Shown in pieces: positions 1,000-26,587 of a stretch of DNA of 51,918 nucleotides. Positions within the stretch are counted from its first letter, which is position 1; each line of letters starts with the position of its first letter. Position numbers and translations under genes: made by a program. The notes beneath the pieces were generated by a model. The model saw only the letters and a list, made by a program, of their open reading frames with translations, was not told the DNA's origin and made no database searches. Location: NCBI GenBank assembly GCA_029571125.1, contig JAKPTH010000325.1:1-51918 (forward strand). Reading direction: 5' to 3'. The DNA is from a bacterium (GTDB lineage Bacteria; Muiribacteriota; UBA9980).

Positions 1000-3501
1000 C
1001 TAACCCTTTAAATTCCGGCACATTTCAATGAAACAAGATTTAAGAGGCTCGTATTCGATAGATTCGAGGAGCTCGAGCGCCATGTCGGCCCTGACCGGAT
1101 CTTTCGATCCAGCGTTTTCGAATATGGCCATGGCCCTTTCCATGTCGTTTAAATAAACGCCGAGGACCGAAAAGCACGAACGCGCAAAAGCGTTTCCGCC
1201 CGAGGCCGCGGCGCCGCGAACCGCGGCCGAGAATTCTTCTTCGAAACTGCTTCTGTGAAATAAAGAAACGGCTTTCAAAAGTTCGTCCCCGCATTCGTAA
1301 TTTTTTTCTTCAAAAATAACGGCATTTAAAAAGCTGCGGACCGGAAATTTTTTGTCGCGGATATAATCTTCAGCCAGCTTTAAAAGTTCGTTTCCGCGCG
1401 AACTTCCGGAAAAAATTTCGGCGAATTTAAGCGAAAAGCCGTCGGGCGAGGCGTTTAAAATTTTTATCAGAATATCTACGGACCGGTTGTCGCCGGCATT
1501 TTTAAGAAGAGCCGATATTTTGCGTTTTTCATCGTTCGGATACGCGTTTAAGACCATCGAAATTTTTGCAAAAACGCCGTTTTCAATCCTGGATATGGCG
1601 CGCGAGGCCAGAAACGATATTTTTTCATTTTCGGCGAGCGCTTTCATCCTTTCGAGCGCGGAAATCAATTTTTGCGATCCGTTTTTTTCGCAGGCCGAAA
1701 CGGCCGACTTTCTGACCTTGAAATCGCCGTCAAAAAGAAGCTTTTCGAGCGCGCCGGCGAAGCATTCGAGCCCCAGTTCCCCCATTACCGCGGCGGCGCT
1801 GACACGGCATCCGGAATCGGCGGACGAGCTCATCTTATAAAGAGATTCCACGGCAAGGCGAAGGGATGATTCTTCGCCGCAAAGCTTTACGGCCGCGAGT
1901 ATGGCGTTAGCCCTGACGCGGTTATCCGGATGCTGCAGGTAAGGGGCTATATACGGTATGAGCCGTGAATCGCCCTGCATAGCGGAAGCTTCTATGAAGT
2001 TGGCGGTGACGCGGTTGTCATTCATGTCAGAAACCGTCCGCCACAGTTCGGTTCTGACTTCATCGCTTTTCTGGCGGCAGGCCGTTTTAACTATCGAAGC
2101 CATTATGAATTTATCTTTTTCGCCGCGAAGGAGTTTGAGTATTATGCCCGAAGATATTACAGGCGAAAGCTTTTCAAGCTCGAAAACCATATCCAGACGG
2201 CCCGCTCTTTCGCTAGCCAGGTAATATTCTATGTCAAAACTTCCGTCCATCGGCATTTTTCTAACGGCTTTTTCGGCCCCGCCGGCAGCGCCGTTTCTCA
2301 GCCCGTCGGCTATGGTGTCCATATAAGCCTCGTTAAGCTTCAAAGTAGAGATATAATAGCAAATTCCGGTTATAAATAGAAAAAGGAAAAAGTAGCGCGG
2401 CTCTATGGAATTTTTAAAGCAGGCTATAAAAATACCCACGAATATGCTCGTAAGCGGAAACACCATGCCTTCCACCATAAATTTCATCTGGTTTTTTATA
2501 TCGCGCGCGAACACGTTAAAAAGAGTATTGGCGACGTTTTGCTCTATAAGTTTTACGAAAAGCTGGAAATAAAACTGAAAAGCTATCATCACCCAGAAGG
2601 ACTTCATAAAAAAAAGTATAAGCGAAAGCCCTATAATTCCCGACTGATAAAAAAGCAAATTGGCGCTGAGCGAAAAATTTTTTAGAAGCTTTTTAGCGGC
2701 GAGTATTTGAGAAATAAAAATAGATATTTTAACCGCCGAGTCGAACAGCCCGATAAATCCCGCCAGGCTTTTCTCGTCGGTGAATCTGGCCGCCACGGCC
2801 GTTCCGTACTGAAAGCCCACTATATATCTTACGAACGAAGAAAAGACGAAAATCAGCATGATTATCTTCAAAAGCCTCGAGCCGGAGATCTGACGCATGG
2901 CCATGTCGGCGAACCCGGCGCGGAAAAAAGATTCTCTTTCCTGAGGCGATTCTACATGCAATAAAGTTACCAGCGGCAATAAAAGATGAGCGGCGCCGCA
3001 CATTATAAAGGCGGATTTCATGGAAATATAGCCCAGAAGCAGCTTTGTAAATAAGCCCGCGAGTATGCCGCCGAAAAAGCTGACGCCGGAAATCAGGCCG
3101 ACATAGCTTTTCATTTCCTTGATGGTGAGGCACTGGTTGATATGCGTCCAGAAAAGTATGTTCGCGTATATGTCATAAATAGAAGTGAGCGTATATAAAA
3201 CTATCACGCCGGCGGACGCCGCGGAGTCCATCACGGAAGAAAACCATATAAGATAAACGCCTATAACCGAGCTCAAATAGACGGGAAACCTGAAGTCGCG
3301 TATGTTTTTCACGGCCAGGGTGGTGCCTGCGCTTATGGAAAGGATGTTAAGTATTATATAGTACAGCGGAAGCTTTTCGGCGCCTGCGGTTTTTAAAAAA
3401 GACGTGCAGGAGAGTATAAGCGAAACGGTAGTGGCGAATTTTAAAAAAAATCCGGTAACGTTGAGATATATGATTTTCTTAGGGATGCGCTTTTCAGTCA
3501 T
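1000..3501 (-). CDS. Polytopic membrane protein (transporter-like N-terminal half) fused to a HEAT-repeat C-terminal half
   Basis: 833-aa ORF. The first ~400 aa form ~10-12 hydrophobic helices. The C-terminal half has repeated HEAT-like motifs (DNRVRANAILAAVKL, CRVSAAAVMGELG, DFKVRKSAVSACEK). It overlaps the upstream gene by 8 nt (3494..3501), implying an operon. Confidence 0.6.
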   Translation of the reverse strand: MTEKRIPKKIIYLNVTGFFLKFATTVSLILSCTSFLKTAGAEKLPLYYIILNILSISAGTTLAVKNIRDFRFPVYLSSVIGVYLIWFSSVMDSAASAGVIVLYTLTSIYDIYANILFWTHINQCLTIKEMKSYVGLISGVSFFGGILAGLFTKLLLGYISMKSAFIMCGAAHLLLPLVTLLHVESPQERESFFRAGFADMAMRQISGSRLLKIIMLIFVFSSFVRYIVGFQYGTAVAARFTDEKSLAGFIGLFDSAVKISIFISQILAAKKLLKNFSLSANLLFYQSGIIGLSLILFFMKSFWVMIAFQFYFQLFVKLIEQNVANTLFNVFARDIKNQMKFMVEGMVFPLTSIFVGIFIACFKNSIEPRYFFLFLFITGICYYISTLKLNEAYMDTIADGLRNGAAGGAEKAVRKMPMDGSFDIEYYLASERAGRLDMVFELEKLSPVISSGIILKLLRGEKDKFIMASIVKTACRQKSDEVRTELWRTVSDMNDNRVTANFIEASAMQGDSRLIPYIAPYLQHPDNRVRANAILAAVKLCGEESSLRLAVESLYKMSSSADSGCRVSAAAVMGELGLECFAGALEKLLFDGDFKVRKSAVSACEKNGSQKLISALERMKALAENEKISFLASRAISRIENGVFAKISMVLNAYPNDEKRKISALLKNAGDNRSVDILIKILNASPDGFSLKFAEIFSGSSRGNELLKLAEDYIRDKKFPVRSFLNAVIFEEKNYECGDELLKAVSLFHRSSFEEEFSAAVRGAAASGGNAFARSCFSVLGVYLNDMERAMAIFENAGSKDPVRADMALELLESIEYEPLKSCFIEMCRNLKG

Positions 3502-8547: not shown

Positions 8548-10083
8548 TTATCGATCGAATGAATCTATCGCCGAAAGCGCCTGCCAGTCAGTCGAAGACG
8601 CCTCGGATAAAGTTTTCAATGACGCCGCGACCTTCGCGACGTAATCCGGCGTTCTCATGCCGACCAGCACCGCGCTCACGCCGCCGCTGGCCGCCAGAGC
8701 CCTTACCGCTATATCGGACAGATCGGCCGCGGCCGAATAAATTGGCGAGATAGCAGCCAGTTTTTCTTTAATTTTTAAAACCGTCTTTAAATGCTCCGAC
8801 CTGAAATGCTTTCCTATAAGCTCAAAAACGGCATAAGCCTCGTTTATATAAACCGATATTTCAGCTTCGGCTTTTTTATCTTTCAAAACGCCTTTTTTCA
8901 AATTATCGAGAAAATATTGCGCGCGCGGCGAAAAATAGCCGCTCATGAAAGATTCGAAATTCGAAATATTAGCGAATTCTTTCCACTTCGAATTAAGCTG
9001 CCCGTGGACGAACACATTTTCGAAAATTATCTCAGCCTTCCCGCGGGCGCTTTCAGACAGCCTTTCGATCGAATCCAGAAGGTTCTCTTCGAGTATGCCG
9101 ATGTCGCGTACCGCGGAATTTATGGCGTTTTCGGCATTTTTGAAATCGTATCCGGCGTGACCCGCGACGCGCGGATCGGCGAGCCGTATGTGCGAGCCTT
9201 TAAAGAAAGCGTTCAGCGGCCTGTTTATAAGAACGCCGATATTTTTCGACCGGGCGAGTTCTAAAAGCGTCAGGCCGTTATCCTGATTTTTTTCAGAAGC
9301 CGCGCCGCGCTCGAATAAATTCATCGGAAATTCGATAACGCCGAAATGATTATCTGGCGATATATTTTCAGCGATCGAAATAACGCGGCCGAGCGGTGTA
9401 AAATTATAAGCGGCGCTAGCAGCAGGAAATGTGTTCGAGCTAATGCCGTAATATTTTATGCGCCCTTTTTTAACTTCGGTTTCGAGGTACAGGAAAGCTT
9501 TTTCGATCCGCGAATAATATTCGCGACGCGCCGTTTCCATATTCATTCCGTCTTTTTCAGCACGCATAAGGTAATATTCGGGATTATGCAGAAGGTAAAT
9601 ATCTATGGCTTCCAGATCAAGTCTGGCAAGGCTTCCTGCGATCTGGTCCTCTAAAAAATCCGGATGGATGCAGTGCTCGAGGCCGTCCGCGTATTCGACA
9701 AGATCCGGCCATGGCGCGCCTTCTTTTTTTCTGGCGGCGCTGGCGTCATAATTTTTACCCTGAATGTAGCCGCCCTTGGTTACAACGACGATATCGCCGC
9801 GCTTCATTTCGCCGCTTCCGATCAATTCGCGCATGACGCTTCCGGCCAGAAGCTCCGAACCGCCGTCCATGTAGTTGGCGCTCGTGTCAATTAAGTTGAT
9901 CCCGGCGCGCAAAGCTTTGATCATAGCGTCTCTGTGGGTTTGAGACGCCGCATCGACTCTGTAGCAGCCAAATCCGGCGGCCGACACCGAATAACCGGTT
10001 TTACCCAGGGCGCGGGAGTTTATTAAGTTGCGGGCCGATAAATCGAGGGCTGGTTTAGTATCTATGTTATTAATAATTTTCAC
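8548..10083 (-). CDS. Aldo/keto reductase family oxidoreductase with a ~180-aa C-terminal extension
   Basis: LGKTGYSVSAAGFGCYRV...ALRAGINLIDTSANYMDGGSE...IDIYLLHNP...YYGISSN are classic AKR motifs. The C-terminal third has no motif I recognise. Confidence 0.8.
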   Translation of the reverse strand: MKIINNIDTKPALDLSARNLINSRALGKTGYSVSAAGFGCYRVDAASQTHRDAMIKALRAGINLIDTSANYMDGGSELLAGSVMRELIGSGEMKRGDIVVVTKGGYIQGKNYDASAARKKEGAPWPDLVEYADGLEHCIHPDFLEDQIAGSLARLDLEAIDIYLLHNPEYYLMRAEKDGMNMETARREYYSRIEKAFLYLETEVKKGRIKYYGISSNTFPAASAAYNFTPLGRVISIAENISPDNHFGVIEFPMNLFERGAASEKNQDNGLTLLELARSKNIGVLINRPLNAFFKGSHIRLADPRVAGHAGYDFKNAENAINSAVRDIGILEENLLDSIERLSESARGKAEIIFENVFVHGQLNSKWKEFANISNFESFMSGYFSPRAQYFLDNLKKGVLKDKKAEAEISVYINEAYAVFELIGKHFRSEHLKTVLKIKEKLAAISPIYSAAADLSDIAVRALAASGGVSAVLVGMRTPDYVAKVAASLKTLSEASSTDWQALSAIDSFDR

Positions 10084-10251
10084 GGGGAGATTATAACATA
10101 TTAACGGGACGGCGTAAAGGAATGAAAAATACTTGGAAACGATTTATTCGAAAATATTTTCGATAATTTTATAAAATTTATTGACATCAAACTCTAAAAA
10201 TGCCATTATATATTGTGGTATTAAAAAAACCACACAAAGGAGTGAATTGCC

Positions 10252-10614
10252 ATGTTCGGAGAATTTGTAAAGCAAAAGCGTATTGAATGCGAACTTTCGC
10301 TCAGGGAATTCTGCCGCCGCCTCAACGAGGACGCCAGCAACTGGAGCAAAATAGAACGCGGAAAGCTCCCGCCGCCTCAAGATATTGAAAAAATCGAAAT
10401 GATCTCCGGCATCTTAAACATAAAAAAAGACTCTCAAGAGTGGAATAATCTGTTAGACTACGCCAGAATTGACGCCGGCATCATACCTGATTACGTTATG
10501 AAAGACAGTGAATTAATGGCGGTCCTGCCTCTTTTTTTTAGGACCGTCGACAACATTAAACCTACCCGCGAAGAACTTCTGAAAATCATCGAAGCCATAA
10601 AAAAAGGAAAATGA
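10252..10614 (+). CDS. XRE-family helix-turn-helix transcriptional regulator
   Basis: FGEFVKQKRIECELSLREFCRRLNEDASNWSKIERGK is a Cro/C1-type HTH. TTGACA at 10181 lies upstream. The region is AT-rich. Confidence 0.8.
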   Translation: MFGEFVKQKRIECELSLREFCRRLNEDASNWSKIERGKLPPPQDIEKIEMISGILNIKKDSQEWNNLLDYARIDAGIIPDYVMKDSELMAVLPLFFRTVDNIKPTREELLKIIEAIKKGK

Positions 10615-10669
10615 TCATGGCAGATTTTTTATCGTTCAAATGTCCTTATATCAGTAAAGCGCAAATAAT

Positions 10670-11014
10670 TTGCAGCATGTTCTACATAAAAAAATATATG
10701 AAGAAATGAATTTTAACAATGAATACGAATACATAGATTTTATTCAAGGCATCGACGAAAAAGAATACAAATTTTTTGAATGGCAGGCTAATTATTTCGC
10801 TGGAAATCTACTTGTGCCCCGCTATGAACTCTCGCTTGAAATAAATAAGATCATGTCAATTTTTGAGATCGATCCTGTATTATCGGGAATTCTCATTGAA
10901 AACCCGGTACAGGTTCTTGAAGGGATTTCTTCTTCAATATCTAAAAAATTCGGCGTATCGGACGAAGTCATAATTCGAAGAGCCAACGATGAAAAGCTCT
11001 GGCCTCCTACATAG
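10670..11014 (+). pseudogene. ImmA/IrrE-family metallopeptidase remnant (N-terminus and HExxH lost)
   Basis: It retains the family C-terminal motif FFEWQANYFAGNLLVPR. Where HExxH is expected, the frame reads stop-SANNLQHVLH (stop at 10655-10657). A separate 33-codon ORF (10611..10712) in another frame looks like the detached N-terminus (ADFLSFKCPYISKAQI). Confidence 0.45.
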
Positions 11015-11082
11015 ACTAATTTCTTTCAAATCAATCTTTTTCAACTTCCGAACAAATTAAAATTAAACTTCCAATCTCATAT

Positions 11083-11120
11083 ATACAAAAATATTTGTAT
11101 ATTTAAAATATTTTTGTATA
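11083..11120 (+). promoter_or_regulatory. Putative enhancer (UAS): two TTTGTATA boxes 19 bp apart
   Basis: TATACAAAAATATTTGTATA (inverted arms TATACAAA/TTTGTATA) with TTTGTATA at 11094-11101 and again at 11113-11120. The same two-box unit recurs at 15656/15675 and 33407/33426. Confidence 0.55.
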
Positions 11121-11228
11121 TTTAACCTGCTTCATTTTCTGTTTTCTCCGCTTGTTTTATCGTATCAAAACTCCCATATAGCTTATGACAGTCCCGTTTG
11201 AAGGAATTTCAGCCGCGGCAGCGGCGCA

Positions 11229-11244
11229 TGGCATAACACTTGCT
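11229..11244 (+). promoter_or_regulatory. Sigma-54 (-24/-12) promoter
   Basis: TGGCATAACACTTGCT matches TGGCACG-N4-TTGCW with correct GG/GC spacing. It lies 43 nt upstream of ATG 11287 and inside the 5' extension of the tracked ORF, which argues for the downstream start. Confidence 0.6.
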
Positions 11245-11286
11245 CATACGTTAGCATCCGTTTTATTTTTATACGGGGGCGATATA

Positions 11287-13941
11287 ATGAAAATCATCGA
11301 GAAGTTATTGTTTAATATTTTTCTTATAGCGATTTTTTCGGTTTCCATTCTTTTTAACACAACGGCCGGCGCAGCCGAACAGACGATTCAGCTTCGCGAC
11401 GGCTTCAACTTCGCGGCGGTTACCGTCACGCCGGATTCAGCAACGCAGGCCATCATGACCGCGAACCCGTCGATAAAAGAAATATATTTATACTCGGCTG
11501 CGGCAGGAAATTTTTTAAGTGCCGCGGCAGGCGATTTTTCTTCACTCGCCCCGGGCCGCGGCTATATAATCATAAGCAAAGGCGCGGCGGTGTTAAAGCT
11601 TCAGGGCACTGAGATCACGCAGGCCGGCGACATCAAATTAAAAGCCGGCTTCAATCTGAGCGGGTTCTCAAAAACTATCGTGCCCATAAAATTCAGCGAG
11701 TTGATATCCGCGAACCCCGCCGTCAAAGGCATTTACAAATGGAGCGCCGCGGCGGGCGGATTCGTGCAGGTGCTTCGCGTAAACGGCCTTCCGGCGGCCA
11801 TCGACGGGGCAGACCCTGAAATTATCTCTGGTCAATCATATTTTATAAATATGGCGGCGGATGCCATTTTAAATTACGACTCGGGCTCGATCAAAATAAC
11901 TGCTGGCGGGACCGAACCGCAGCCTCCGATCACGCCTTCGCCTTTATCGCTGGCGCTGTCGATAACCGAAATTTCCGTCGAGCAGGGCGGCGTTTACGAT
12001 CTGTCGCGAATAAAGGCGGCCGTCAAATATTCCGACGGCTCGACCAGGGAAGTTTCGGCAGTTTATACCTGCGATTCCGGCGCGATATTTGGAAACTTAT
12101 ACCAGGCGCCGGCCTCGCCCGGGACGGCGTCCATAACGGCGTCATATACTGAGGGCTCCTCGGCGCTCAAATGCGTTTTGAAACTAAACATAATCGAAAA
12201 ACCTCTGGACATAGCCGATTATTTCCCGCTGCGCCGAGAAGACCTTTATTACTACTCAAACGGCCAAGATGTCATCGACTACCGAATAACCGGCGAATAT
12301 TACGCGGCCGGAGTTCTGGCGACCAAATTCGCTTCGACCAACGGGACTTACGATCACTACAGGCTCGACGAAACCGGGCTTTATTACTGCGACACCGCGG
12401 CCGACAGGCCGACGAAACTATGCAATAAAAATCCGAAATTAAACGAAAGCTGCTTCAGTTACGTTAAAAACTCTCTCGGGCAGGCCGTATATACAAGCAC
12501 TCTCCTCTCGCGCGACGCTTACAGCGTTCACGGCGGATTGTTCGATGACGTGCTGGTAATAGAAAACAAAATGACGATGAACGGCGTAACGTCATCGATG
12601 TATTTCTTTTTCGCCAGGGGCGTCGGGCTGATAAGATACGCCACCAGTTTGATGCAGTTCGAATTCGCCGGCGGCCTCGTCGGCGGCCGTTCATACGCGC
12701 CCGTAAAGAAGAAATGGACGTTTTTGATATACTCGTGCGGCGACAACGATCGCGGCGACATAAGCCCCACTCTTATCAACGAGATAAAGGGCTATCGGAA
12801 CACAGATATCGAAAACGACGCCAACATAGTGGTACAGCTGTCGCCGTCTAAAAGTTATTACTCAAATATTTACAACTCCGAATTTTACAATATAACCGCG
12901 TCGCGTTATTATTTAAAAGACGGCGTGTTCTACCGAAATTACTCCAGGACTGGAGTGCATACCAATAACGGCGACCCGAACGACATTTACGGCTTTTTAA
13001 ACTGGGGCGCGACCGTTTTTCCCGCGGAGCATTACGCTATATTCATTTCGGCTCATGGCAGCGGGATCATATCGTGGACCGGATTCAGCGCGGCGGGGCC
13101 GAAACGCTCGATAGCCTATGACGACCATCCATACAATTACCTGAGCGCGGCCGAATATAAGAACGTGTTCAGTTCGATCAAGAACAAAATAGGCAAAAAG
13201 ATCGACATAATAACATTCGATTCGTGCGTAATGGGCATGCTCGAGGTCGCCTATCAGCTAAGGGACTGCGCCGATCATTTCGTAGCGTCCGAGGCGGTGG
13301 CGCTCGAGCGCGACACGGCGATGTTTTCGCAAAAATTCATGGCGCTCGCCGATAAATCGCCTCTCGCGGTATCGAAAGCGATAGTGGACTCATATATCGA
13401 TTCGGCAAAGCTCGCCGGAAAAAGCCTTACCATGTCCGCGGTCGATCTTGCAAAAGTATCCGCCATGGGTGGTTTTATAAGCTCGATAGCCTCGATGTGG
13501 CTTTCAAAATCAATGAATGAGAGCGAGATAGCGGCGTTCGTAAACGCCATCTATAAATCGCAGCGGTTCGGACCTGCGCCGTATAACGAATCCGCGGCGA
13601 CCATGCTGTATGATTTCTCGACGAGCTATATCGACGTCTTCGATTTCGCCGCGCAATTATCTCTGAACTCCGGAGCGGGCGATCTCAAAAATTACGCCGA
13701 TTCGATCTTAAATTATAAAAACACCTTGATAACCCACAGCCGGGCCACCGGCATTTATTATCCGCGCGCCGCGGGGCTCACGATATTCATTCCGAAGTTT
13801 TCGACGCAGTGGTATAACAGCGATATGACAAGCAACTACATCCGGGAGCAGTATATGTATTTAACCGACTTCGGCTCCTCGACGATGTGGGGTTCTTTCC
13901 TGGACGACTGGTCGGGGTTTCTTTACAGGAACGGGTGGTAA
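11287..13941 (+). CDS. Secreted clostripain-like (peptidase family C11) cysteine protease with N-terminal Ig-like (Big_2-type) domains
   Basis: Start moved to M35 of ORF 11185..13941 (GGGGG RBS 7 nt upstream). Signal peptide MKIIEKLLFNIFLIAIFSVSILFNTTAGAAE. C11 hallmarks are WTFLIYSCGDND, YAIFISAHGSG (His-Gly) and ITFDSCVMGMLEVAYQLRD (catalytic Cys). An Ig-like segment is ISVEQGGVYDLSRIKAAVKYSDGSTREVSAVYTC. Confidence 0.75.
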   Translation: MKIIEKLLFNIFLIAIFSVSILFNTTAGAAEQTIQLRDGFNFAAVTVTPDSATQAIMTANPSIKEIYLYSAAAGNFLSAAAGDFSSLAPGRGYIIISKGAAVLKLQGTEITQAGDIKLKAGFNLSGFSKTIVPIKFSELISANPAVKGIYKWSAAAGGFVQVLRVNGLPAAIDGADPEIISGQSYFINMAADAILNYDSGSIKITAGGTEPQPPITPSPLSLALSITEISVEQGGVYDLSRIKAAVKYSDGSTREVSAVYTCDSGAIFGNLYQAPASPGTASITASYTEGSSALKCVLKLNIIEKPLDIADYFPLRREDLYYYSNGQDVIDYRITGEYYAAGVLATKFASTNGTYDHYRLDETGLYYCDTAADRPTKLCNKNPKLNESCFSYVKNSLGQAVYTSTLLSRDAYSVHGGLFDDVLVIENKMTMNGVTSSMYFFFARGVGLIRYATSLMQFEFAGGLVGGRSYAPVKKKWTFLIYSCGDNDRGDISPTLINEIKGYRNTDIENDANIVVQLSPSKSYYSNIYNSEFYNITASRYYLKDGVFYRNYSRTGVHTNNGDPNDIYGFLNWGATVFPAEHYAIFISAHGSGIISWTGFSAAGPKRSIAYDDHPYNYLSAAEYKNVFSSIKNKIGKKIDIITFDSCVMGMLEVAYQLRDCADHFVASEAVALERDTAMFSQKFMALADKSPLAVSKAIVDSYIDSAKLAGKSLTMSAVDLAKVSAMGGFISSIASMWLSKSMNESEIAAFVNAIYKSQRFGPAPYNESAATMLYDFSTSYIDVFDFAAQLSLNSGAGDLKNYADSILNYKNTLITHSRATGIYYPRAAGLTIFIPKFSTQWYNSDMTSNYIREQYMYLTDFGSSTMWGSFLDDWSGFLYRNGW

Positions 13942-14016: not shown

Positions 14017-15567
14017 GTGACCATGATGAAATTAATAAAAGCGCAGTTAATAATTTTAATTCTTTTTTTGATGTTCGCTTCGAGCGCCGCAGCGGGCGAA
14101 ATAAAAGACGTCGTCAAAGGCATGGAAAATTCAGTCGTATCGGTAAAAGTCACGAACGAAAAAGGCCAAAAGATATCAGGAAGCGGGTTTTGCTACATAT
14201 CATCTCAATATATCGTAACTAATTATCATGTAATCGAAGACGCGGTTAAAATAACGGTAAGTTTGAAAAGCGGCAAAACGTATAACGTCAAAGACATTTA
14301 TAAATCCGACAAAGAAAGAGATATAGCCATTTTAAAGATCGCCGGCTCGGAGCTCACCCCTATAGAAAGATCAGAAGGTGTCGAAGTCGGCGAAAAAATC
14401 ATCGTAATAGGTAATCCTCTCGGACTTTCGTTTTCTGTGTCAGACGGAATAGTAAGTTCTTTCAGGGGCAAGGAAGCGAGTTTCGACAGGGCGATACAGA
14501 TAACCGCGCCCATTTCTCCGGGAAACAGCGGCGGCCCGCTGCTAGATGAGAACGCGAAATTGCTCGGAATAACGACTTATTCATTCAAGGACGGCCAGAA
14601 TTTGAACTTCGCCGTCCCGGCCGAATATATTGAAAAAATGATCAACCCTCAAAAAGTTGAAACGGTTAAATTAACCAGCGCCCAGGCCCAGTGCGCTGAT
14701 TGCAAAAAAGAAATCAAAAATTACGATGAAATGAAATTCTGTCCTTACTGCGGCGCAAAACTTGATAAAGCGGACGTCAAAATTGAAAATTCATCGGTCA
14801 GCGTAAACGACAGAAAAAAACTATTCGATAAACTTTTAAACCTGTGCCGCAAAAACATATCTGGAATGACGAATTTCTTTACCGTGCGCGACGCCGTAAA
14901 AATTATCAGAACTCTGAACGAGATCAACGAAAATAATTATATAGTGGAGTCGATGCTCTCTATAGCCTATACTATCGACGGAGACAAAAAATTATCAAAA
15001 AAATATCTGGATAAGGCCGTTTTAAATCAAAAAAGAAGCGCTTCAGGCTCGGACGAAATTTTGCTCAGGGCGCAGATATTATACGAACACACATTCGGCG
15101 ACGACACGGCGGCACAGAATAAAATGTCGGCGGCCAAAAACCGGGAAGGCGATCTCAAGAAATTTTATGAAAATTTATCGGAACATGGAAAAGACGGCCA
15201 TATAGTTTCGCCGCTCAGTTTTGAAAAAGTATCGAAATTAAAGGGAGAGCCTAAATACAAGACCGCAATGATAATCGGAGATTATAACTTCGAACTGTCA
15301 ATTTACGAAAGATACAACGAGTTCGAAGAATATTACAGATACCTGGTGCTGATATTTTTGAAGGATGTTTACATAGGGCAGATAAACTTTATCAGAATGC
15401 TGCCAAGCGAGCTTATCATCAGAGGCGAGGCCATAAAAGCCCTTAACAGGAACCACCAGGAAGCCGTAACCGCCTGGAAAAAATTTAAAGAAGATCCCGA
15501 ATATAAGGCCATCGAAAGGTTTTTTCCTGAATTTGACGGTTTGGGATGGATAATAGAATTAAAATAA
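14017..15567 (+). CDS. Secreted trypsin-like (S1C/HtrA-like) serine protease fused to a zinc ribbon and an unknown C-terminal domain
   Basis: Signal peptide KLIKAQLIILILFLMFASSAAAGE. Catalytic triad context is IVTNYHVIEDA / DIAILKI / GNSGGPLLD. The zinc ribbon is CADCKKEIKNYDEMKFCPYCGAKL. About 250 aa at the C-terminus have no recognisable motif. The true start is probably ATG 14023 or 14026. Confidence 0.75.
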   Translation: MTMMKLIKAQLIILILFLMFASSAAAGEIKDVVKGMENSVVSVKVTNEKGQKISGSGFCYISSQYIVTNYHVIEDAVKITVSLKSGKTYNVKDIYKSDKERDIAILKIAGSELTPIERSEGVEVGEKIIVIGNPLGLSFSVSDGIVSSFRGKEASFDRAIQITAPISPGNSGGPLLDENAKLLGITTYSFKDGQNLNFAVPAEYIEKMINPQKVETVKLTSAQAQCADCKKEIKNYDEMKFCPYCGAKLDKADVKIENSSVSVNDRKKLFDKLLNLCRKNISGMTNFFTVRDAVKIIRTLNEINENNYIVESMLSIAYTIDGDKKLSKKYLDKAVLNQKRSASGSDEILLRAQILYEHTFGDDTAAQNKMSAAKNREGDLKKFYENLSEHGKDGHIVSPLSFEKVSKLKGEPKYKTAMIIGDYNFELSIYERYNEFEEYYRYLVLIFLKDVYIGQINFIRMLPSELIIRGEAIKALNRNHQEAVTAWKKFKEDPEYKAIERFFPEFDGLGWIIELK

Positions 15568-15586
15568 AAACTTTAATAATTCTTTA

Positions 15587-15640
15587 AAACCGCTTTTTAA
15601 GGCCAGTATTCAAAAGCCTTATGAAGCGGTTTTTCTTTTC
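15587..15640 (+). terminator. Probable intrinsic terminator of the protease operon
   Basis: AAAACCGCTT (15587-15596) pairs with AAGCGGTTTT (15624-15633), with an inner AAGGC/GCCTT pairing, followed by TTTTCTTTTC. Confidence 0.5.
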
Positions 15641-15648
15641 TTCATTAT

Positions 15649-15682
15649 AAAAATATTTGTATACATCAAAAAAATTTGTATA
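15649..15682 (+). promoter_or_regulatory. Putative enhancer (UAS): two TTTGTATA boxes 19 bp apart
   Basis: AAAAATATTTGTATA...AAAAAATTTGTATA with TTTGTATA at 15656-15663 and 15675-15682. Confidence 0.55.
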
Positions 15683-15811: not shown

Positions 15812-15827
15812 CGGCACGCTAAATGCT
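15812..15827 (+). promoter_or_regulatory. Sigma-54 (-24/-12) promoter
   Basis: CGGCACGCTAAATGCT has GGCACG-N4-xTGCT with correct spacing. It lies 131 bp downstream of the UAS and 76 nt upstream of ATG 15903. Confidence 0.6.
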
Positions 15828-15902
15828 TTGTTAACTGCATGACGTTATTAAGCGGCCGCTGAAGTATTAATAATCATAATTTTAAATCCAAAGGAGAATT
15901 CT

Positions 15903-17000
15903 ATGAAAAAGCCTGTCAGATTAAATTTCAAACCTGAATTTTTTGTTTTTATTTTCTTTTTCGCCCTGTTCGATCTGAATTTTGCCGCGGCTCAAACGAC
16001 CTTAGAGGTCGCCTTTCAAACAATGGAAGTCCGGGTCAAGCCCGCCGAAAGCACTCTGGAGATAGCACTGATGCCCTTCGACGACCGGCCGAACTCGGCT
16101 GAAATCGAATTTAATTCGGCGCTCGGATACATTAATAAGCAGGAATATACCACGGCTATAGAGCTTCTTAAGAGATCCGCCGATTTCGACCCAGGCTTCG
16201 CGAAGGCGTATTATAACATGGGACTCTGCCTGTACCGGCTCGGCATGAACTATAATGCTTCGGAGCAGTTCGGTTACGCCATCGATAAAAACCCCAATTA
16301 TATAGACGCTTATCACAATAATATCGTAATATTAAGTAAAATCGGAAAAAACAAGGAAGCGGCCGCGCTTGCCGAAATTGCAACCGGCCTTTGCAATAAG
16401 CTTAAGTTATACGAAAGGGCCGAAACCTATAAAAAAATCCTTGAAAGTCTCAAAACCAGATATAAAGAAGAAAGGAAAACTGAGCGTAAAAAAAAGTACG
16501 GCGAAAAAGAGACTGCCGAGATACTCAAAAAGATGAGGACGGAAACCGACGACGTGGCCGATATGACAAGATACACCGATAAAAGCACCACGGCTTATAA
16601 CAACGTGGAGTCCTTTCATTTAACGCTCATCAAACCGAAAGAGTTAGAAAAGCCGTTATTATATTTAAAGATCCAGAGGCGCGGCTCGGAATATCTGGGC
16701 ATTCAAAGCTACACGATAAAAGCGGACGAGAATAAATTCGAAATCACACTGGGCTGGAACGACCTGAAATCCGATTTCAACTACGGCGCCGCGTCCGAAA
16801 ACTATACCATGCACGTTAACAACAGCAATATCGACATGATAAAATCCCTGGCCGGAGCTAAAAAAATTATCATAAGATACCATGGCAGGCAGTTTTACGA
16901 CGACAGAACCGTATCAGCTAAAGAGATCAAGGCCCTGAACAACGTTCTCGAAGCATATGAAGCTTTGGGCGGCGATTTTGAAGATATGGACTTAAATTAA
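15903..17000 (+). CDS. Secreted TPR-repeat protein with an unknown C-terminal domain
   Basis: RBS AAAGGAGAA. Signal peptide FVFIFFFALFDLNFAAAQT. TPR-like repeats (FNSALGYINKQEYTTAIELLKRSADFDPGFAKAYYNMGLCLYRLGMNYNASEQFGYAIDKNPNYIDAYHN). A Lys/Glu-rich linker is followed by a ~150-aa domain I do not recognise. Confidence 0.7.
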   Translation: MKKPVRLNFKPEFFVFIFFFALFDLNFAAAQTTLEVAFQTMEVRVKPAESTLEIALMPFDDRPNSAEIEFNSALGYINKQEYTTAIELLKRSADFDPGFAKAYYNMGLCLYRLGMNYNASEQFGYAIDKNPNYIDAYHNNIVILSKIGKNKEAAALAEIATGLCNKLKLYERAETYKKILESLKTRYKEERKTERKKKYGEKETAEILKKMRTETDDVADMTRYTDKSTTAYNNVESFHLTLIKPKELEKPLLYLKIQRRGSEYLGIQSYTIKADENKFEITLGWNDLKSDFNYGAASENYTMHVNNSNIDMIKSLAGAKKIIIRYHGRQFYDDRTVSAKEIKALNNVLEAYEALGGDFEDMDLN

Positions 17001-17324: not shown

Positions 17325-17353
17325 TTGACAAAATCCATGATATATGATATATT
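17325..17353 (+). promoter_or_regulatory. Near-consensus sigma-70 promoter of the BREX operon
   Basis: TTGACA (17325-17330), 17 nt, TATATT (17348-17353), with TG at -15/-14. A 5-bp inverted repeat TGCGA-N9-TCGCA (17301-17319) abuts the -35 and could be an operator. Confidence 0.6.
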
Positions 17354-17430: not shown

Positions 17431-18057
17431 ATGAATAAAAAAAAGTACAAAATGTCGTTCACTACGGGCGGACTTTTTTTCAACGAATCGCTTAAAGCCG
17501 CCGAAATTTATTCGCGCCTTCGCGACTGGGAGGCTGCCCGCGGCGAGATCGAAGATAAAAATACGCTTCAGGCCAACAGGGCGAGCACGCTCAAGCGCGT
17601 CAGCCTGGAGATATGCTCGCGCCTCAAAACTCTCGCAGACAAAGAGGTCGAATATTTATTAACCGCCTGCCCCCACGAGCAGCGGCTTATTTTATGGCTC
17701 GCCGTATGCCGCCGCTACAGGTTCATCGGCCAGTTCGCGGCTGAAATCATACGCGAGCGCTTCCTTTCGATGCGCTACGAGCTCGCGGCCGAGGATTTCG
17801 ACGCCTTTTTCAATTTGAAGGCGCAGTGGAACGACGGTCTTGAAAAGATCAAACCCGCCACGCGCGCGAAACTCCGCCAGGTATTTTTTAAAATTATCCG
17901 CGAGGCCGAGCTGATGGCGCCCGCCGGCGATATCATGCCGCCCATTTTTTCGCGAGGCCTTATCGAACTTTTAAGCGAAACCGCCCCGGCCGACATTTTT
18001 TACTTTCCGACGCACGAAAAGATCGGGGGATTCGAATCAGGAAGGGGCGCGGCATGA
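17431..18057 (+). CDS. brxA: BREX protein BrxA (DUF1819 family)
   Basis: ~200 aa, YKMSFTTGGLFFNESLKAAEIY N-terminus typical of DUF1819. It is the first gene of a brxA-brxB-brxC-pglX-pglZ-brxL array and has an ATGA overlap with the next gene. Confidence 0.8.
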   Translation: MNKKKYKMSFTTGGLFFNESLKAAEIYSRLRDWEAARGEIEDKNTLQANRASTLKRVSLEICSRLKTLADKEVEYLLTACPHEQRLILWLAVCRRYRFIGQFAAEIIRERFLSMRYELAAEDFDAFFNLKAQWNDGLEKIKPATRAKLRQVFFKIIREAELMAPAGDIMPPIFSRGLIELLSETAPADIFYFPTHEKIGGFESGRGAA

Positions 18058-18695
18058 AAAACAATACGAACCACTCCGCCGGTCACGGGACCTGTAATTT
18101 AAATAAAGCTCCCCATATGTTCGCCCACCTGGTGAAGGTTATCTCCAGCGAACGGTTTCTGAAGATGCAGGGCCTCGGCAACGAGATCCCTTTCTTCATA
18201 TGCCCGTTCAAAGCCGAAAATGCTTTCGAAATCGACCAGATGCGCAGGCAGCTGGCCAATAAATTAACTCAGGAAGGCGTTTCGGTGCTCGAGATAGACC
18301 TTTACGACCTGTCGATAAATCTTCTCCGGCAGCGCGGTTTATTCGACAGGCTGATCGGGATGGAGGCGGAGATGCCCAAGGACCATCTTTTAGAAACGCT
18401 CGGCAACGTACTGGACCCGAGGTCATATTTAGTCCCGGAGATCGCAGGAATATCGGAAAGCGCCGGAGATTATGACGTAATGTTCATATGCGGCGTCGGA
18501 GAGGTTTTTCCATACATCAGGTCGCACAACATCCTCGAGGACCTTCAGATAGCGATCAAGAACAGGCCCGTGGTGCTTTTTTTCCCGGGCGATTACACAT
18601 TTTCGATAGAATCGGGATCGTCGCTGAAGCTTTTCGGACGGATGGAGGACAATAAGTACTATAGGGCGCAGAATATCCTCAACTACCAGATATGA
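18054..18695 (+). CDS. brxB: BREX protein BrxB (DUF1788 family)
   Basis: ~210 aa. Its position and the IPFFICPFKAENAFEI...VMFICGVGEVFPYIRSHNIL pattern match DUF1788. Confidence 0.8.
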   Translation: MKNNTNHSAGHGTCNLNKAPHMFAHLVKVISSERFLKMQGLGNEIPFFICPFKAENAFEIDQMRRQLANKLTQEGVSVLEIDLYDLSINLLRQRGLFDRLIGMEAEMPKDHLLETLGNVLDPRSYLVPEIAGISESAGDYDVMFICGVGEVFPYIRSHNILEDLQIAIKNRPVVLFFPGDYTFSIESGSSLKLFGRMEDNKYYRAQNILNYQI

Positions 18696-18810
18696 TCTGA
18701 AAATCGAGCATTTGAATCAATAATAAAATTTTTATAATACTTTGATAATTAACTTAGCAATTAATTAGAACCGATTTTTCGATTATTTTATAAAACACGC
18801 GGGGTCATCA

Positions 18811-21800
18811 ATGAATTTAAAACAGTTATTCGCAAGGCCGGTCGACCGCCCTATAGAGGGCGTAATAAAAGCCGACGACGATGCGCAGTTAAAGCTCGAG
18901 ATAGAAGAATACGTCCTGACGAACGAAGTGTCGAAAAGGCTCGAAAATTTCCTCGACGCCTACCTCAATTACAGCGGCGCGAACGGCGTCTGGGTGTCCG
19001 GCTTTTTCGGCTCCGGTAAATCCCACATGCTCAAGCTGCTCGCCATCCTCCTCGAGAACCGTCAAATAGACGGCGGAAGCGCCCTCGATCTTTTCGTTCC
19101 GAAGTGCTCCGACACGGTGCTCAAGGCCAATCTCAAGCGCGCGGCGGCGATACCGTCGAAAAGCATATTATTCAATATCGACCAGAAGGCCGACGTCATA
19201 AGCAAGACGCAGACCGACGCGCTGCTTTCGGTTTTCATGAAGGTGTTCGACGAATCCTGCGGCTATTACGGCAAGCAGGGATATATCGCGCAGTTCGAAA
19301 GGGAGCTCGACTCCCGCGGCCTGTACGGCAAATTCAGGGAGGCTTTCAGGTCTGTTTCGGGCCTCGACTGGGAAAAAGGCCGCGAGCAGGCTTTATTAGA
19401 ATCGGCTAATATATCGAAGGCCTACGCGGCCGCCACGAATTCTTCCGCGGCCGAAGCCGCCGGAATACTCGAAAAATTCAGGACGCAGTATAAAGTGTCC
19501 ATCGAAGACTTCGCAGAGCTGGTCAAAGCGTATATAGAGTCCAGGCCGGAAGGTTTCCGCCTTAACTTCTTCGTCGACGAGGTGGGCCAGTATATCGCGG
19601 AGAACACGAAACTGATGACCAACCTTCAGACCATAGCCGAAAGCCTCGCCACCAAATGCCGCGGCCGATCGTGGATAATAGTGACGGCGCAGGAGGACAT
19701 GGACACCGTCGTCGGCGAGATGAACAAAAGGCAGTTCAACGATTTTTCCAAGATCCAGGCGCGTTTCGCGACGCGCCTCAAGCTGACGAGCGCCGACGTG
19801 GACGAGGTCATTCAAAGAAGGCTGCTCGAGAAAAACGACGAGGGCGTAAAAGTATTTTCAGAGCTTTTCCACAGGCATTCGAACAATTTCAAGACCTTTT
19901 TCGACTTCGGCGACGGGTCTCAGACCTACCGCAACTTCAGGGACCACGAACATTTTATATCGTGCAGCCCTTTCACGCCCTATCAGTTCAGGCTTTTTCA
20001 GGCTGCCATACAGAGCCTCTCGGCGCACAACGCGTTCGAAGGCCGCCACAGTTCGGTCGGCGAGCGTTCGATGCTCGGCGTGTTCCAGCAGGTGGCTATC
20101 CTGATCGGCGGCCACGAGCCCGGCCAGATAGCCACCTTCGACCTGATGTTCGAAGGCATACGCACCGCGCTCAAATCGGCCGTCCAGAGCTCGATCATTA
20201 ACGCCGAAAAGCAGCTCAACGACAAATTCGCGATCAAATTATTAAAATCGCTTTTCCTGGTCAAGTATATAACGGCGTTTAAGGCATCGGTTCGCAATTT
20301 GTGCATACTGGCGTTCGACGGCTTCGAGCGCGACCTGCCTCGGCTTAAAAAGAGCGTCGAAGAGTCGCTTGCGCTGCTGGAACAGCAGACATATATACAG
20401 CGCAACGGCGATTATTTTGAATTTCTAACCAACGAAGAAAAGGACATCGAGACCGAGATCAAGAACGTCACGGTCGAGGCCAACGAATTGAACTCCGAAC
20501 TTGAAAAGCTGATATTCGACCATGTGATAAAGGACCGCAAGATCAAATTCAAGGATAACGGCCAGGACTTCGCATTTTCGCGCAAGATCGACGATAAGCT
20601 CATCGGGCGCGAGCACGAGCTGGCGATCAACGTCATAACGCCGTTCAAAAGCGACGACGACCGCGAGGAAGCGTTCCGTATGCAGTCGAACTTCCGCGAC
20701 GAGCTCGTCGTTATAATGAGGCTCGATCCAAGATTGAGCATGGACCTTTTAATGTTCAAGCGCACCGAAAAATATATCAAGCAGAATTATTCGAGCGCCC
20801 AGCAGGATACGGTGCGCTCGATACTCGCCGACAAGGGATCGCGCAACAACGACCGATACCGCGAGGTACAGAGGCTCATCAAAGAGTCGCTCGCGGAGGC
20901 TAAACTGATAATAGACGGCGCGGAGGTAAAAACGAACGGTTCCGACCCGCAGTCGCGCATTATCGAAGCGTTCGGCGAGCTTATCACGCGCGTCTATCCC
21001 AACCTCAAGATGCATAAAAACGCCGTTTACGCCGAAAGCGACATCAATAAAATTTTCAGCGAGCCGCGCGCCGATATGTTCCAGACGGCGGCGCAGTCGC
21101 TAGCCGAGCCCGAACAGGAGGTCCTGGCGTTCATCCAGACCTCGAGTCGCGGCGGCGTGCGCACCACGCTCAAGGCGCTGGTCGAAAGATTCGAAAAAAA
21201 GCCCTACGGCTGGCATTATCTGGCGACACTGCACGCGCTGGCCAATCTGTATATGTTCGGCAAGCTCGAGATAAGGTCGGGATCGTCGGTAATAGAGAAC
21301 GATGAAGTGCGCCAGGCGTTTTTCAACTCGAACGGCTATGCGGGCGTCGTCATCGACCCGCAGATCGAGTTCACTCCGGCGCAGGTGCGCGCGCTTAAAT
21401 CGTTTTACGGCGATTTCTTCGACGCGCCACCGGTATCCGGCGAGGCGAAGGCGCTGGCGCAGGAAACGGGCGCGGCCTTCAAAAAATACGCGCAGGAACT
21501 CGATGTCATAATGGCGGCAGGCCGGCAGTTCCCTTTTTTAAGCGCGCTCCAGCCGGTCGTCGAATTATTGAAGACGGTGTGCAACAATCCATACACCTGG
21601 TATCTGACGGAGCTGGCGAAGCAGGCGGACTCGCTTCTGGAGTTAAAGGAGAAAGTGAGCGAGCCCATCATCAAATTCATGAACGGCGCGCATAAAGAGA
21701 TTTTTGAATCGGCGCAGAAATTTTTGCAGGAACAGGAACCTAATTTTCTGTACATAGAAGGCGACGAGCCGAAGCAGGCTGTTGAAATACTGAACGACCC

Positions 21801-22305
21801 GCTATGCTATCGTGGCGGCGGAATGCAGAGATTAAAAACGCTCGTAGAAGGCCTTCAGCGTAAAATAAGCGCAAGGATAGCCGAAGAGATCGCGGCCGCG
21901 GGCGGGAAGATCGACGAATTAAAGTCCGGCGCGGCCTCGCTGCCGGAATTCAAAACTCTCGACGAAACGAAGAAAACTGAAATCTTGAAAAAATTCGACG
22001 ATTTCAGGGGTTCTATCGAAAGGCACAGATTCATAGCCGTAATAAGCGATACGGTAAGGCGGTTCGAAGAAATCGAATACGCGAAGATAGTTCGCGAGAT
22101 CATCCCGATAACGCCGCCAGTCGGACCGACTCCGCCGGGGCCCCAGCCTCCCGTTGCGACCCCTGAAGAAATATCGCTGAGCGCGCTTCGGACCGGTTAT
22201 AAAGATAAAAAGATAGCAAGCAAAAAAGACGCCGAAAAATATATCGAAGCGCTCAAAACCGCAATGGAAGAAGAGATCGCAAAAGGCAAAACCATAATTT
22301 TATAA
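18811..22305 (+). CDS. brxC: BREX P-loop ATPase BrxC/PglY
   Basis: 1164 aa. Walker A is SGFFGSGKSHMLKLLA and Walker B-like is FFVDEVGQY. Size and position are typical of BrxC. Confidence 0.9.
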   Translation: MNLKQLFARPVDRPIEGVIKADDDAQLKLEIEEYVLTNEVSKRLENFLDAYLNYSGANGVWVSGFFGSGKSHMLKLLAILLENRQIDGGSALDLFVPKCSDTVLKANLKRAAAIPSKSILFNIDQKADVISKTQTDALLSVFMKVFDESCGYYGKQGYIAQFERELDSRGLYGKFREAFRSVSGLDWEKGREQALLESANISKAYAAATNSSAAEAAGILEKFRTQYKVSIEDFAELVKAYIESRPEGFRLNFFVDEVGQYIAENTKLMTNLQTIAESLATKCRGRSWIIVTAQEDMDTVVGEMNKRQFNDFSKIQARFATRLKLTSADVDEVIQRRLLEKNDEGVKVFSELFHRHSNNFKTFFDFGDGSQTYRNFRDHEHFISCSPFTPYQFRLFQAAIQSLSAHNAFEGRHSSVGERSMLGVFQQVAILIGGHEPGQIATFDLMFEGIRTALKSAVQSSIINAEKQLNDKFAIKLLKSLFLVKYITAFKASVRNLCILAFDGFERDLPRLKKSVEESLALLEQQTYIQRNGDYFEFLTNEEKDIETEIKNVTVEANELNSELEKLIFDHVIKDRKIKFKDNGQDFAFSRKIDDKLIGREHELAINVITPFKSDDDREEAFRMQSNFRDELVVIMRLDPRLSMDLLMFKRTEKYIKQNYSSAQQDTVRSILADKGSRNNDRYREVQRLIKESLAEAKLIIDGAEVKTNGSDPQSRIIEAFGELITRVYPNLKMHKNAVYAESDINKIFSEPRADMFQTAAQSLAEPEQEVLAFIQTSSRGGVRTTLKALVERFEKKPYGWHYLATLHALANLYMFGKLEIRSGSSVIENDEVRQAFFNSNGYAGVVIDPQIEFTPAQVRALKSFYGDFFDAPPVSGEAKALAQETGAAFKKYAQELDVIMAAGRQFPFLSALQPVVELLKTVCNNPYTWYLTELAKQADSLLELKEKVSEPIIKFMNGAHKEIFESAQKFLQEQEPNFLYIEGDEPKQAVEILNDPLCYRGGGMQRLKTLVEGLQRKISARIAEEIAAAGGKIDELKSGAASLPEFKTLDETKKTEILKKFDDFRGSIERHRFIAVISDTVRRFEEIEYAKIVREIIPITPPVGPTPPGPQPPVATPEEISLSALRTGYKDKKIASKKDAEKYIEALKTAMEEEIAKGKTIIL

Positions 22306-22328
22306 AATTCAGATTTTAAGGAAAATAT

Positions 22329-25937: not shown

Positions 25938-25974
25938 AATTTGACTCAGCCGTTTAAGGCTAAAAGGAGGCGTA

Positions 25975-26190
25975 ATGGAAGCTATAAGAACTAATATTTT
26001 AGTCAATTCGGAAACGATAACCATTCCTCAGCTGAAAAAATTCATCGGCAAAAAAGTTGAAATTATATGTTTAGGAGAGGAAAAAACGAAAAAATCCCCC
26101 GCCAGATTAAAAAAATTCTTCAGTCTCGCCGGTAAGATCAAAATGAGCGCAAAAAAAATTAACGAGTTAAGAGAGTTGAGCAAAATATGA
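25975..26190 (+). CDS. Putative antitoxin (AbrB/SpoVT-like swapped-hairpin type)
   Basis: 71 aa with RBS AAAAGGAGG. It has an ATGA overlap with the downstream PIN gene. The N-terminus is ITIPQLKKFIGKKVEIICLGEE-like. Confidence 0.55.
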   Translation: MEAIRTNILVNSETITIPQLKKFIGKKVEIICLGEEKTKKSPARLKKFFSLAGKIKMSAKKINELRELSKI

Positions 26191-26570
26191 TCCTCGTTGA
26201 TACTAATGTTATAATCAACTACTGGCGCAGGCCAACCCAAAAAATTGAAAAATTTTTTTTATCCGACGACATCGCAATTTGCGGAGTCACTAAATCCGAA
26301 TTAATTTACGGCGCAAAAAACGAAAAAGAAATCGAATCTATTTCAGAAGCGCTTTCTGATTTCATATATATCGAAATCGATGATATATGGGAAGATGTCG
26401 GTCGTCTATTGTTCGAACTTAAAACTAAAGGGGTGACCATACCTTTTCAGGACGCCATAATTTGCTCTCTGGCCTTGAAGAACGACCTTAAGATATGGAG
26501 CGATGACAAGCATTTCAAACTGGTTAAAAAAGTCATACCTGAGTTAGAATTATTTGAAGAAACCCGTTAG
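26187..26570 (+). CDS. vapC: PIN-domain toxin (VapC-like ribonuclease)
   Basis: MILVDTNVIINYW N-terminus. The acidic quartet is in the expected spacing (D5 in LVDTN, E in TKSELIYG, D in FQDAIICSLA, D in IWSDDKHF). 127 aa. Confidence 0.8.
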   Translation: MILVDTNVIINYWRRPTQKIEKFFLSDDIAICGVTKSELIYGAKNEKEIESISEALSDFIYIEIDDIWEDVGRLLFELKTKGVTIPFQDAIICSLALKNDLKIWSDDKHFKLVKKVIPELELFEETR

Positions 26571-26587
26571 TAACAAAAGGCTGAATT

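Follow-up and report, generated by a model that had tools for sequence, protein, structure and literature searches.

The 51,918-nt contig analysed here, called the window throughout, carries three intergenic regions (P1, P2 and P3) in which a pair of AT-rich boxes lies upstream of a -24/-12 element of the sigma-54 type. The first and best defined of them, at 11082–11244, precedes a two-gene operon for exported proteases of the C11 and S1 families and is the subject of this analysis; the second precedes a gene for a TPR-repeat protein and the third a gene for a rare protein with an HExxH motif. A type 1 BREX system lies between P2 and P3, followed by the gene of a CARF-AAA+-HTH protein, a bacterial enhancer-binding protein (bEBP) of the class that works with sigma-54. 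The features are collected in Table 1.

Table 1. Features of the window around the three box-and-promoter units, in order of position. PWM, position weight matrix; ORF, open reading frame.
Feature	Position	Strand	Basis or remark
ThrRS gene	5691		
Aldo/keto reductase (AKR) gene	8548–10083	-	
XRE-family HTH gene	10252–10614		strong sigma-70-like promoter at 10181–10209
ImmA-like (ImmA/IrrE) ORF	10670		C-terminal part only, HExxH part missing; appears truncated
P1 distal enhancer box (putative)	11082–11101	.	near-perfect 20-bp palindrome TATACAAAAATATTTGTATA = TATACAAA-AATA-TTTGTATA
P1 proximal enhancer box (putative) ATTTAAAATATTTTTGTATA	11101–11120	+	sequence, shuffles, PWM
P1 sigma-54 -24/-12 element TGGCAT-N5-TTGCT	11229–11244	+	sequence; ortholog invariance
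C11 (clostripain-family) protease, P1 operon gene 1	11287–13941	+	Pfam PF03415, E=1.5e-32
HtrA-like S1 serine protease with zinc ribbon and signal peptide, P1 operon gene 2	14017–15567	+	Pfam Trypsin_2, NCBIfam DegP-like
Intrinsic terminator closing the C11-S1 operon, directly before the P2 boxes	15586–15645	+	hairpin of -22 kcal/mol, z=-6.1, then U-rich run
P2 enhancer (putative), boxes ATTATAAAAATATTTGTATA and ACATCAAAAAAATTTGTATA, cores 19 bp apart	15644–15682	+	PWM scores 25.6 and 19.8
P2 sigma-54 -24/-12 element CGGCAC-N5-ATGCT	15812–15827	+	76 nt before the TPR gene
TPR-repeat protein with signal peptide, P2 cargo	15903–17000	+	Pfam TPR families; translation
Sigma-70-type promoter of BREX	17325–17353		TTGACA-17-TATATT with TG, 11/12
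Type 1 BREX: BrxA, BrxB, BrxC, PglX, PIN gene, PglZ, BrxL	17431–31185		complete
Endonuclease/exonuclease/phosphatase (EEP) gene	31276–31758		internally deleted, 160 aa
511-aa CARF-AAA+-HTH enhancer-binding protein, RtcR-like; proposed box binder	31810–33345	+	PADLOC RtcR_PspF2
P3 enhancer (putative), degenerate distal box TACATAAAAATATTTGAGTC and proximal box CATATAAATATTTTTGTATA	33395–33433	+	PWM; near-identical in L011, L026, L038
P3 sigma-54 -24/-12 element CGGCAT-N5-TTGCA	33538–33553	+	conserved in L001, L002, L011, L026, L038, L041
312-aa protein with invariant HExxH...E, P3 cargo, conserved partner of the activator	33807–34745	+	translation, alignment
TspO gene, then esterase gene	35311–37276		
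Second sigma-54 activator, RR-PAS-GAF-AAA+-HTH (receiver-PAS-GAF)	37376–41098		
Sigma-54-like site TGGCAT-N5-ATGCA	41446–41461		precedes the CheA-like gene
CheA-like gene	41673		unusual domain order

At P1 two copies of the core TTTGTATA lie on the plus strand at 11094–11101 and 11113–11120, with starts 19 bp apart, and a third copy on the minus strand at 11082–11089 completes a TATACAAA-N4-TTTGTATA inverted repeat. The -24/-12 element begins 110 bp past the end of the second box (117 bp from the proximal core to the GG) and matches TGGCAY-N5-TTGCW at 16 of 16 positions, which predicts a transcription start near 11255. The C11 ATG has a GGGGG ribosome-binding site in front, and the C11 translation reads as beginning with a signal peptide. 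The 75-nt gap between the C11 and S1 genes contains no terminator, whereas a strong one separates the operon from P2. A promoter scan showed no good sigma-70-type promoter in front of C11.

The same arrangement recurs at P2, where the cores start at 15656 and 15675, and at P3, where only the proximal core, at 33426, is TTTGTATA; in the distal box at 33407 TTTGAGTC takes its place, with the 19-bp register and the flanking AAAAATATTTG unchanged. The exact sequence common to all three is AAAAATATTTG-N15-TTTGTATA, and the boxes, with a consensus of roughly ATAYAAAWATWTTTGTATA, form two adjacent AT-rich pseudo-palindromes of 20 bp whose cores are spaced by about two helical turns. All three pairs are intergenic and oriented like the next gene, and the distance from the second box to the GG-N10-GC is 113–138 bp. 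The GG and GC are exactly 10 nt apart in each element, as in TGGCAC-N5-TTGCW, and the elements end 43 (P1), 76 (P2) and 254 (P3) nt before the start codons. An earlier note on this DNA, made from the letters alone, had placed the P1 boxes, their inverted repeat and the -24/-12 element exactly here, 110 bp downstream of the boxes and 43 nt before the ATG. It had also named the P2 and P3 copies (15656/15675 to 15812 and 33407/33426 to 33538). Its 19-bp phasing is kept in all three units, and its distances of 106–131 bp are right when measured from the end of the second box to the GG. The claim of identical box sequence holds for five of the six boxes and fails for the one at 33407.

The excess of these motifs over chance lies in their combination. 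The core TTTGTATA occurs eight times in the window where 1.8 occurrences are expected, and six of the eight fall inside the three units; the 34-nt pattern AAAAATATTTG-N15-TTTGTATA has exactly three perfect matches on the plus strand (0.08 expected at up to three mismatches), and the direct repeat with a 17–19-bp offset in each unit beats 198–200 of 200 dinucleotide shuffles. On its own the -24/-12 motif is only weakly enriched (5 versus 0.69 expected for a relaxed pattern; 4 versus 1.84 for the strict TGGCAY-N5-TTGCW with up to one mismatch); what makes the units significant is thus that boxes and promoter occur together, where they lie and how they are conserved. A rough estimate for three chance co-localisations of box pair and promoter is about 1e-7.

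A position weight matrix (PWM) was trained exclusively on other genomes, with the proximal boxes of five promoters (two from L041 and one each from L043, L001 and L002; these handles denote related loci). Among about 104,000 positions of the window its top seven scores all fall on the three enhancers, the P1 distal box being joint best with 25.6, and the next score is clearly lower. The motif is essentially absent from the rest of the 52 kb and from related loci of 21, 21 and 11 kb. The earlier note had named a ubiquitous AT-rich repeat as an outcome that would speak against its proposal; as far as the available DNA shows, the motif is thus no such repeat. That proposal, a small sigma-54 regulon with a shared enhancer whose three copies are unlikely to have arisen by chance, is supported by these statistics, by the cross-genome matrix and by the conservation among orthologs described next.

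The related loci were obtained by metagenome and exact-protein look-ups; in the genome collection the closest activators are 79% identical to that of the window. The source is an uncultured bacterium of anaerobic digesters, the same strain being present in JGI 3300010345, 3300009689 and 3300025720, and one protein fragment with 90% identity carries the annotation Candidatus Wallbacteria. Where the activator is 70–88% identical, a box pair with a sigma-54 promoter follows its 3' end and stands in front of the HExxH operon (L001, L002, L011, L026, L038 and L041), and boxes lie beside the activator in these loci and in L043. Orthologs of the C11 protease are found in L041 (62% identity) and L043 (56%), and both are preceded by a promoter matching the consensus at 7 of 7 positions and by a box pair in the 19-bp phase, despite different gene orders. 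The segments ATGGCA and TTGCTC are invariant in the orthologous promoters of L016, L041 and L043, and the best conserved element of the orthologous C11 promoters is the proximal box. When all units are aligned, conservation is restricted to the boxes and the -24/-12 element, the intervening DNA having diverged. Taken over 11 instances, the proximal box has the approximate form TA.AAA.ATTTTTGTATAT, with GTGTG replacing GTATA in L001 and L002; it lies 113–118 bp from the GG in eight of them and 126–147 bp in the other three.

In more distant relatives (40–55% identity) a consensus sigma-54 promoter is usually found within about 25 bp of the activator stop codon, or divergently upstream of the gene. 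Repeats of the AAATATTTTT type in L006, L020 and L021, whose activators are at most 55% identical, were not individually significant and were not counted as evidence. As a separate observation, the expected enhancer position in nine relatives (L003–L005, L007, L008, L013, L014, L019 and L029) falls in the last about 150 bp of the activator gene, on KKKYI codons (AAAAAATATAT) that resemble the box core; this resemblance may reflect either a coding-embedded enhancer or coincidence.

Along its entire length the activator encoded next to P3 fits the PADLOC model RtcR_PspF2 (CARF_AAA_HTH; E=1.4e-153), and it also matches a CARF1 model. The NCBIfam RtcR model covers residues 2–495 with 305 bits against a cut-off of 650, so the protein is, as judged by this score, a homolog of RtcR and not RtcR itself; no rtcA or rtcB gene was found in the window or the related loci. 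The Sigma54_activat domain (PF00158, E=1.7e-62) and a Fis-type HTH (HTH_8, PF02954) are present, and structural matches of the AAA+ domain are to ZraR and NtrC1 (E about 1e-75 to 1e-68). The N-terminal part carries the motifs SWIGTHD and HTSPGTGQM (SWIGxxD and HTSPGTxQM in the family) and is predicted to be a divergent CARF domain. It lacks the basic residue typical of CARF domains that bind cyclic oligoadenylates, an absence also reported for the RtcR group (Makarova et al., 2014; PMC4012209). The recognition helix LLGYKNYQTL is highly conserved in the activator and 22 relatives. The loop expected to contact sigma-54, encoded at 32530–32600 (residues about 243–262), reads GAWTG[SA] in 20 of these 23 aligned proteins (family set L001–L027) and GAWTDA or GAWTNS in three, never the canonical GAFTGA. 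With the CARF domain alone, a word-indexed search returned one match, and an exhaustive search was needed to reveal the family, 462 representative relatives of mostly about 500 aa. The earlier note had spoken of two activators in the window as possible binders of the boxes, to be tested; two sigma-54 activators are indeed present, and the comparison favours one of them, the CARF-type protein.

Taken together, these data lead us to read 11082–11244 as an enhancer-dependent sigma-54 promoter of the C11-S1 operon, one of three promoters in a regulon of the CARF activator, with a probability that we put at roughly 0.75. A mechanism can be modelled by analogy with RtcR, NtrC and PspF. Dimers of the CARF-AAA+-HTH protein would occupy the boxes through the Fis-type HTH, and in the resting state the N-terminal CARF domain would prevent assembly of the AAA+ domains. 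This block would be lifted by a ligand formed upon infection or RNA damage, by analogy RNA ending in a 2',3'-cyclic phosphate or a cyclic oligonucleotide. The box-bound dimers could then build a hexamer, and looping of the DNA would bring it to the sigma-54 holoenzyme held at the -24/-12 element. Hydrolysis of ATP, transmitted by the GAWTGA loop, would remodel the holoenzyme and open the promoter, and transcription of C11-S1 would begin at the predicted start. P2 and P3, with the TPR gene and the HExxH gene, would be expected to respond in parallel.

Several points weigh against this interpretation. The boxes are AT-rich and are set in AT-rich intergenic DNA, the distal box of P3 is degenerate, and P2, for which there is no supporting ortholog, agrees with the consensus at only 5 of the 7 positions scored. 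L016 retains a single box, though in a decayed locus, and the two-box repeat of a single locus does not reach significance once the activator is less than about 55% identical. Inspection of P1–P3 by eye did not show a convincing IHF site between enhancer and promoter; partial matches to WATCAANNNNTTR, the best in P2 (TTATCAAGTGTTTT), and several T-tracts were seen. Read-through into C11 from the XRE promoter at 10181 is possible. No rpoN gene was found in the 52-kb window; its presence in the genome is implied by the two intact bEBP genes of the window. Finally, the activator has a tryptophan where GAFTGA has its invariant phenylalanine, and no published functional test of this exchange was found in the literature searched. 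The GAWTG[SA] loop is presumably compatible with sigma-54, because members of the family carry consensus sigma-54 promoters beside the activator gene.

The sigma-54 promoters might be genuine and the boxes bound by another protein, either the second activator or the XRE repressor, both of which are encoded in the window. Directly upstream of P1 lies the XRE gene; together with the ImmA-like ORF it forms a pair like that of the CapH/CapP-type regulators of defence operons (weak PADLOC matches). This appears unlikely to us. The boxes accompany the CARF activator in every related locus examined, while the XRE/ImmA pair is absent near the boxes in L011, L038, L041 and L043, and L038 has no second activator at the equivalent position. 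The ImmA-like ORF is without its HExxH motif and is apparently truncated, which together with the absence of the pair from relatives that carry the boxes speaks against a CapH/CapP-like operator. The second activator has a site of its own at 41446, with different repeats; TTTGTATA boxes are absent there, and a 17–22-bp repeat is not significant against shuffles.

A second possibility is that the boxes are an inherited AT-rich remnant of a duplicated promoter cassette, or intrinsic bends or UP-like elements. P1 and P3 do share the sequence GTTAGC(G/A)(G/T)CCG...TTT past the -12, which suggests a duplication, the boxes are of low complexity, and a single one is kept in L016. Against this, the DNA between boxes and promoter can no longer be aligned, yet the boxes have been retained together with the 19-bp register and the spacing to the promoter; the motif is essentially absent elsewhere in the window and in three related loci, and the palindromic form of the boxes suits binding by a dimeric HTH protein. 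We therefore regard a mere remnant as quite improbable. Least probable of all is that the -24/-12 matches are fortuitous and C11-S1 is transcribed from a sigma-70 promoter such as that at 10181–10209: the sigma-54 motif alone is only modestly enriched, that site is strong and no terminator was detected between ImmA and C11, but P1 matches its consensus completely, ATGGCA...TTGCTC is invariant before the C11 orthologs of L041 and L043, neither of them with an XRE gene upstream, the window encodes two intact sigma-54 activators, and members of the activator family consistently have consensus sigma-54 promoters beside their genes.

Regulation by the CARF activator, as preferred here, follows a known regulatory design, to which the locus adds a readable enhancer consensus and an unusual cargo. 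Classical bEBP enhancers are those of NtrC at glnAp2, PspF (UAS I and II at pspA; UAS, upstream activating sequence) and NifA (TGT-N10-ACA). According to an account attributed to Bush and Dixon (2012, as cited in PMC9650030), such enhancers reportedly consist of adjacent dyad-symmetric sites, about two turns apart and some 100–150 bp upstream of the -24/-12 element, on which dimers assemble into the hexamer. The units of the window share the two adjacent dyad-symmetric sites upstream of a -24/-12 element and the two-turn spacing. They differ in the sequence of the box (ATAYAAAWATWTTTGTATA) and its extreme AT-richness, in the lack of an IHF site recognisable by eye and in the sensor, a CARF domain in place of a receiver or GAF domain.

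The nearest characterised system is RtcR with rtcBA of E. coli and Salmonella. It has in common with the window a divergent CARF domain without the basic residue after strand 4, an NtrC-type AAA+ domain, a Fis-type HTH, a UAS with a -24/-12 promoter, and, as proposed for the window, a CARF domain that is inhibitory until a signal arrives (PMC9650030; PMC7790460); removal of the CARF domain renders E. coli RtcR constitutively active (PMC9650030). Unlike in that system, rtcA, rtcB and rsr genes are absent nearby, the putative targets are exported C11/S1 proteases, a TPR protein and the HExxH protein, the loop reads GAWTGA instead of GAFTGA, and there are three promoters instead of one, with the activator co-oriented with its target and not divergent from it.

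RtcR-like CARF-NtrC-HTH proteins encoded beside restriction-modification systems were proposed earlier to be sigma-54 activators (Makarova et al., 2014; PMC4012209), and RtcR homologs head the CoCoNuT defence superoperons (Bell et al., 2024; PMC11090510). The activator of the window belongs to the same family (RtcR_PspF2) and likewise lies in a variable region, here with BREX. It differs from these cases in that the enhancer and the promoters can be read, and in that they are carried by the protease and TPR genes while BREX has a promoter of its own. Neither experimental work on the RtcR homologs nor a description of an enhancer or promoter was found in the literature searched. The locus supplies an enhancer consensus, a fixed geometry, three target promoters and natural rearrangements in which the unit stays with its genes. 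The predictions of 2014 and 2024 that RtcR-like proteins control defence genes thus become directly testable, and prediction of the regulons of this family in other genomes would be enabled.

The loci set out here share a backbone of ThrRS, a ferredoxin-like gene, an unknown ORF and the AKR gene on the minus strand; L043 is without the AKR gene, and the contig of L001 does not reach the backbone. The backbone is followed in L002 by a minus-strand ORF of 465 aa and the activator, the contig stopping in the leader past a P3-type promoter; in L011 by EEP, activator, a toxin-antitoxin (TA) gene, a 133-aa ORF and HExxH; in L038 by BREX, EEP, a serpin, activator, RelB/YafQ, a 133-aa ORF and HExxH; in L041 and L042 by activator, a 180-aa ORF, HExxH, Fic, C11 and BrxE-BREX; and in L043 by EEP, activator, C11 and HExxH. 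L001 has the activator, a TA module, HExxH and the start of a C11-like gene. L016 is a deletion derivative in which a P1-type promoter with one box is kept together with fragments of ImmA and C11: at 3183–3356 two C11 fragments make up a 37-aa ORF behind the promoter, and the rest of the C11/S1/TPR/BREX block is gone. The interval between AKR and the activator is therefore a hotspot of gain and loss. Judged by these gene orders, the lineage keeps the activator and the HExxH gene as fixed members of the locus, and C11/S1, TPR and BREX are variable cargo between them and the AKR gene.

The HExxH protein is rare. Only seven homologs (sequence clusters) were found, and all those whose context was examined adjoin the activator; searches of Pfam, NCBIfam and PADLOC with it were all empty. 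An AlphaFold model computed from seven sequences had a mean pLDDT of 40 and was not used. The cargo is surprising for a CARF-controlled circuit, with exported C11/S1 proteases, a TPR protein and this protein. A speculative and rather doubtful extension is that activator, HExxH protein and exported C11/S1 proteases form an undescribed inducible module that travels with BREX, in which the CARF domain would read a nucleotide or RNA alarm and trigger a burst of proteases as a second-line or abortive response. If true, the module would do at the level of transcription what the CARF/SAVED-controlled proteases do in type III CRISPR and CBASS systems.

The cargo of distant relatives includes Cas6-like proteins, UvrD-like and DNA2-like helicases, a 1372-aa NTPase (P-loop) and an ADP-ribosylglycohydrolase, which is consistent with the activator family being a general switch for defence-type genes. 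In L007 (11544–16343) a DNA2-like helicase is followed by BrxA/BrxB of a BREX system, and diverse cargo of the activator is also seen in L013, L019, L025 and L029, in L014 and L017, and in L018.

A strong sigma-70-type promoter of its own probably places the BREX system of the window outside the regulon. Transcription from P2 was considered and rejected as its main route, given this promoter and the absence of a sigma-54 site before the BREX genes of L041. A PIN-domain gene and a 71-aa ORF are inserted between pglX and pglZ, and a sequence nearly identical to the BREX promoter precedes an unrelated gene in L016 (3541). Intact forms of the EEP gene, encoding 323–331 aa, lie just upstream of the activator in L016, L038 and L043. 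The XRE/ImmA genes (10252–11014) look like a decaying regulator pair, of which L016 keeps just the last 21 codons of ImmA. The AKR gene was considered as an activator and rejected, its domain match being to aldo/keto reductases. An Rfam scan of the whole window gave zero matches.

The second activator and the site at 41446 are probably a separate enhancer-promoter pair; the different direct repeats there (GTTACATAT..TGTTTCT) lie at 41136–41190, about 260–300 bp upstream of the site.

Two further elements were noted downstream of the promoters. A GC-rich palindromic element, TTAGCGGCCGC(G)TTT, lies directly past the -12 of P3 (33560–33575). The P3 orthologs of L011, L026 and L038 carry it too, as does the P1-type promoter in L016; in P1 a degenerate form stands at 11251–11265, in P2 the element lies further downstream (15850–15859), and L001 and L002 have none. 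It may represent an additional operator or mark a conserved 5' end of the transcripts. Between P3 and the HExxH gene, the leader of 245 nt folds no better than shuffled sequences (z=-0.02), and a structured RNA is not proposed. This leader contains TTGTTCACT twice, at 33647–33655 and 33734–33742, 87 bp apart. Pairs spaced by 87–91 bp occur in the leaders of L001, L002 and L041/L042, and single copies in L011, L026, L038 and L039; L018, a distant relative, has a pair on its minus strand (2110 and 2197).

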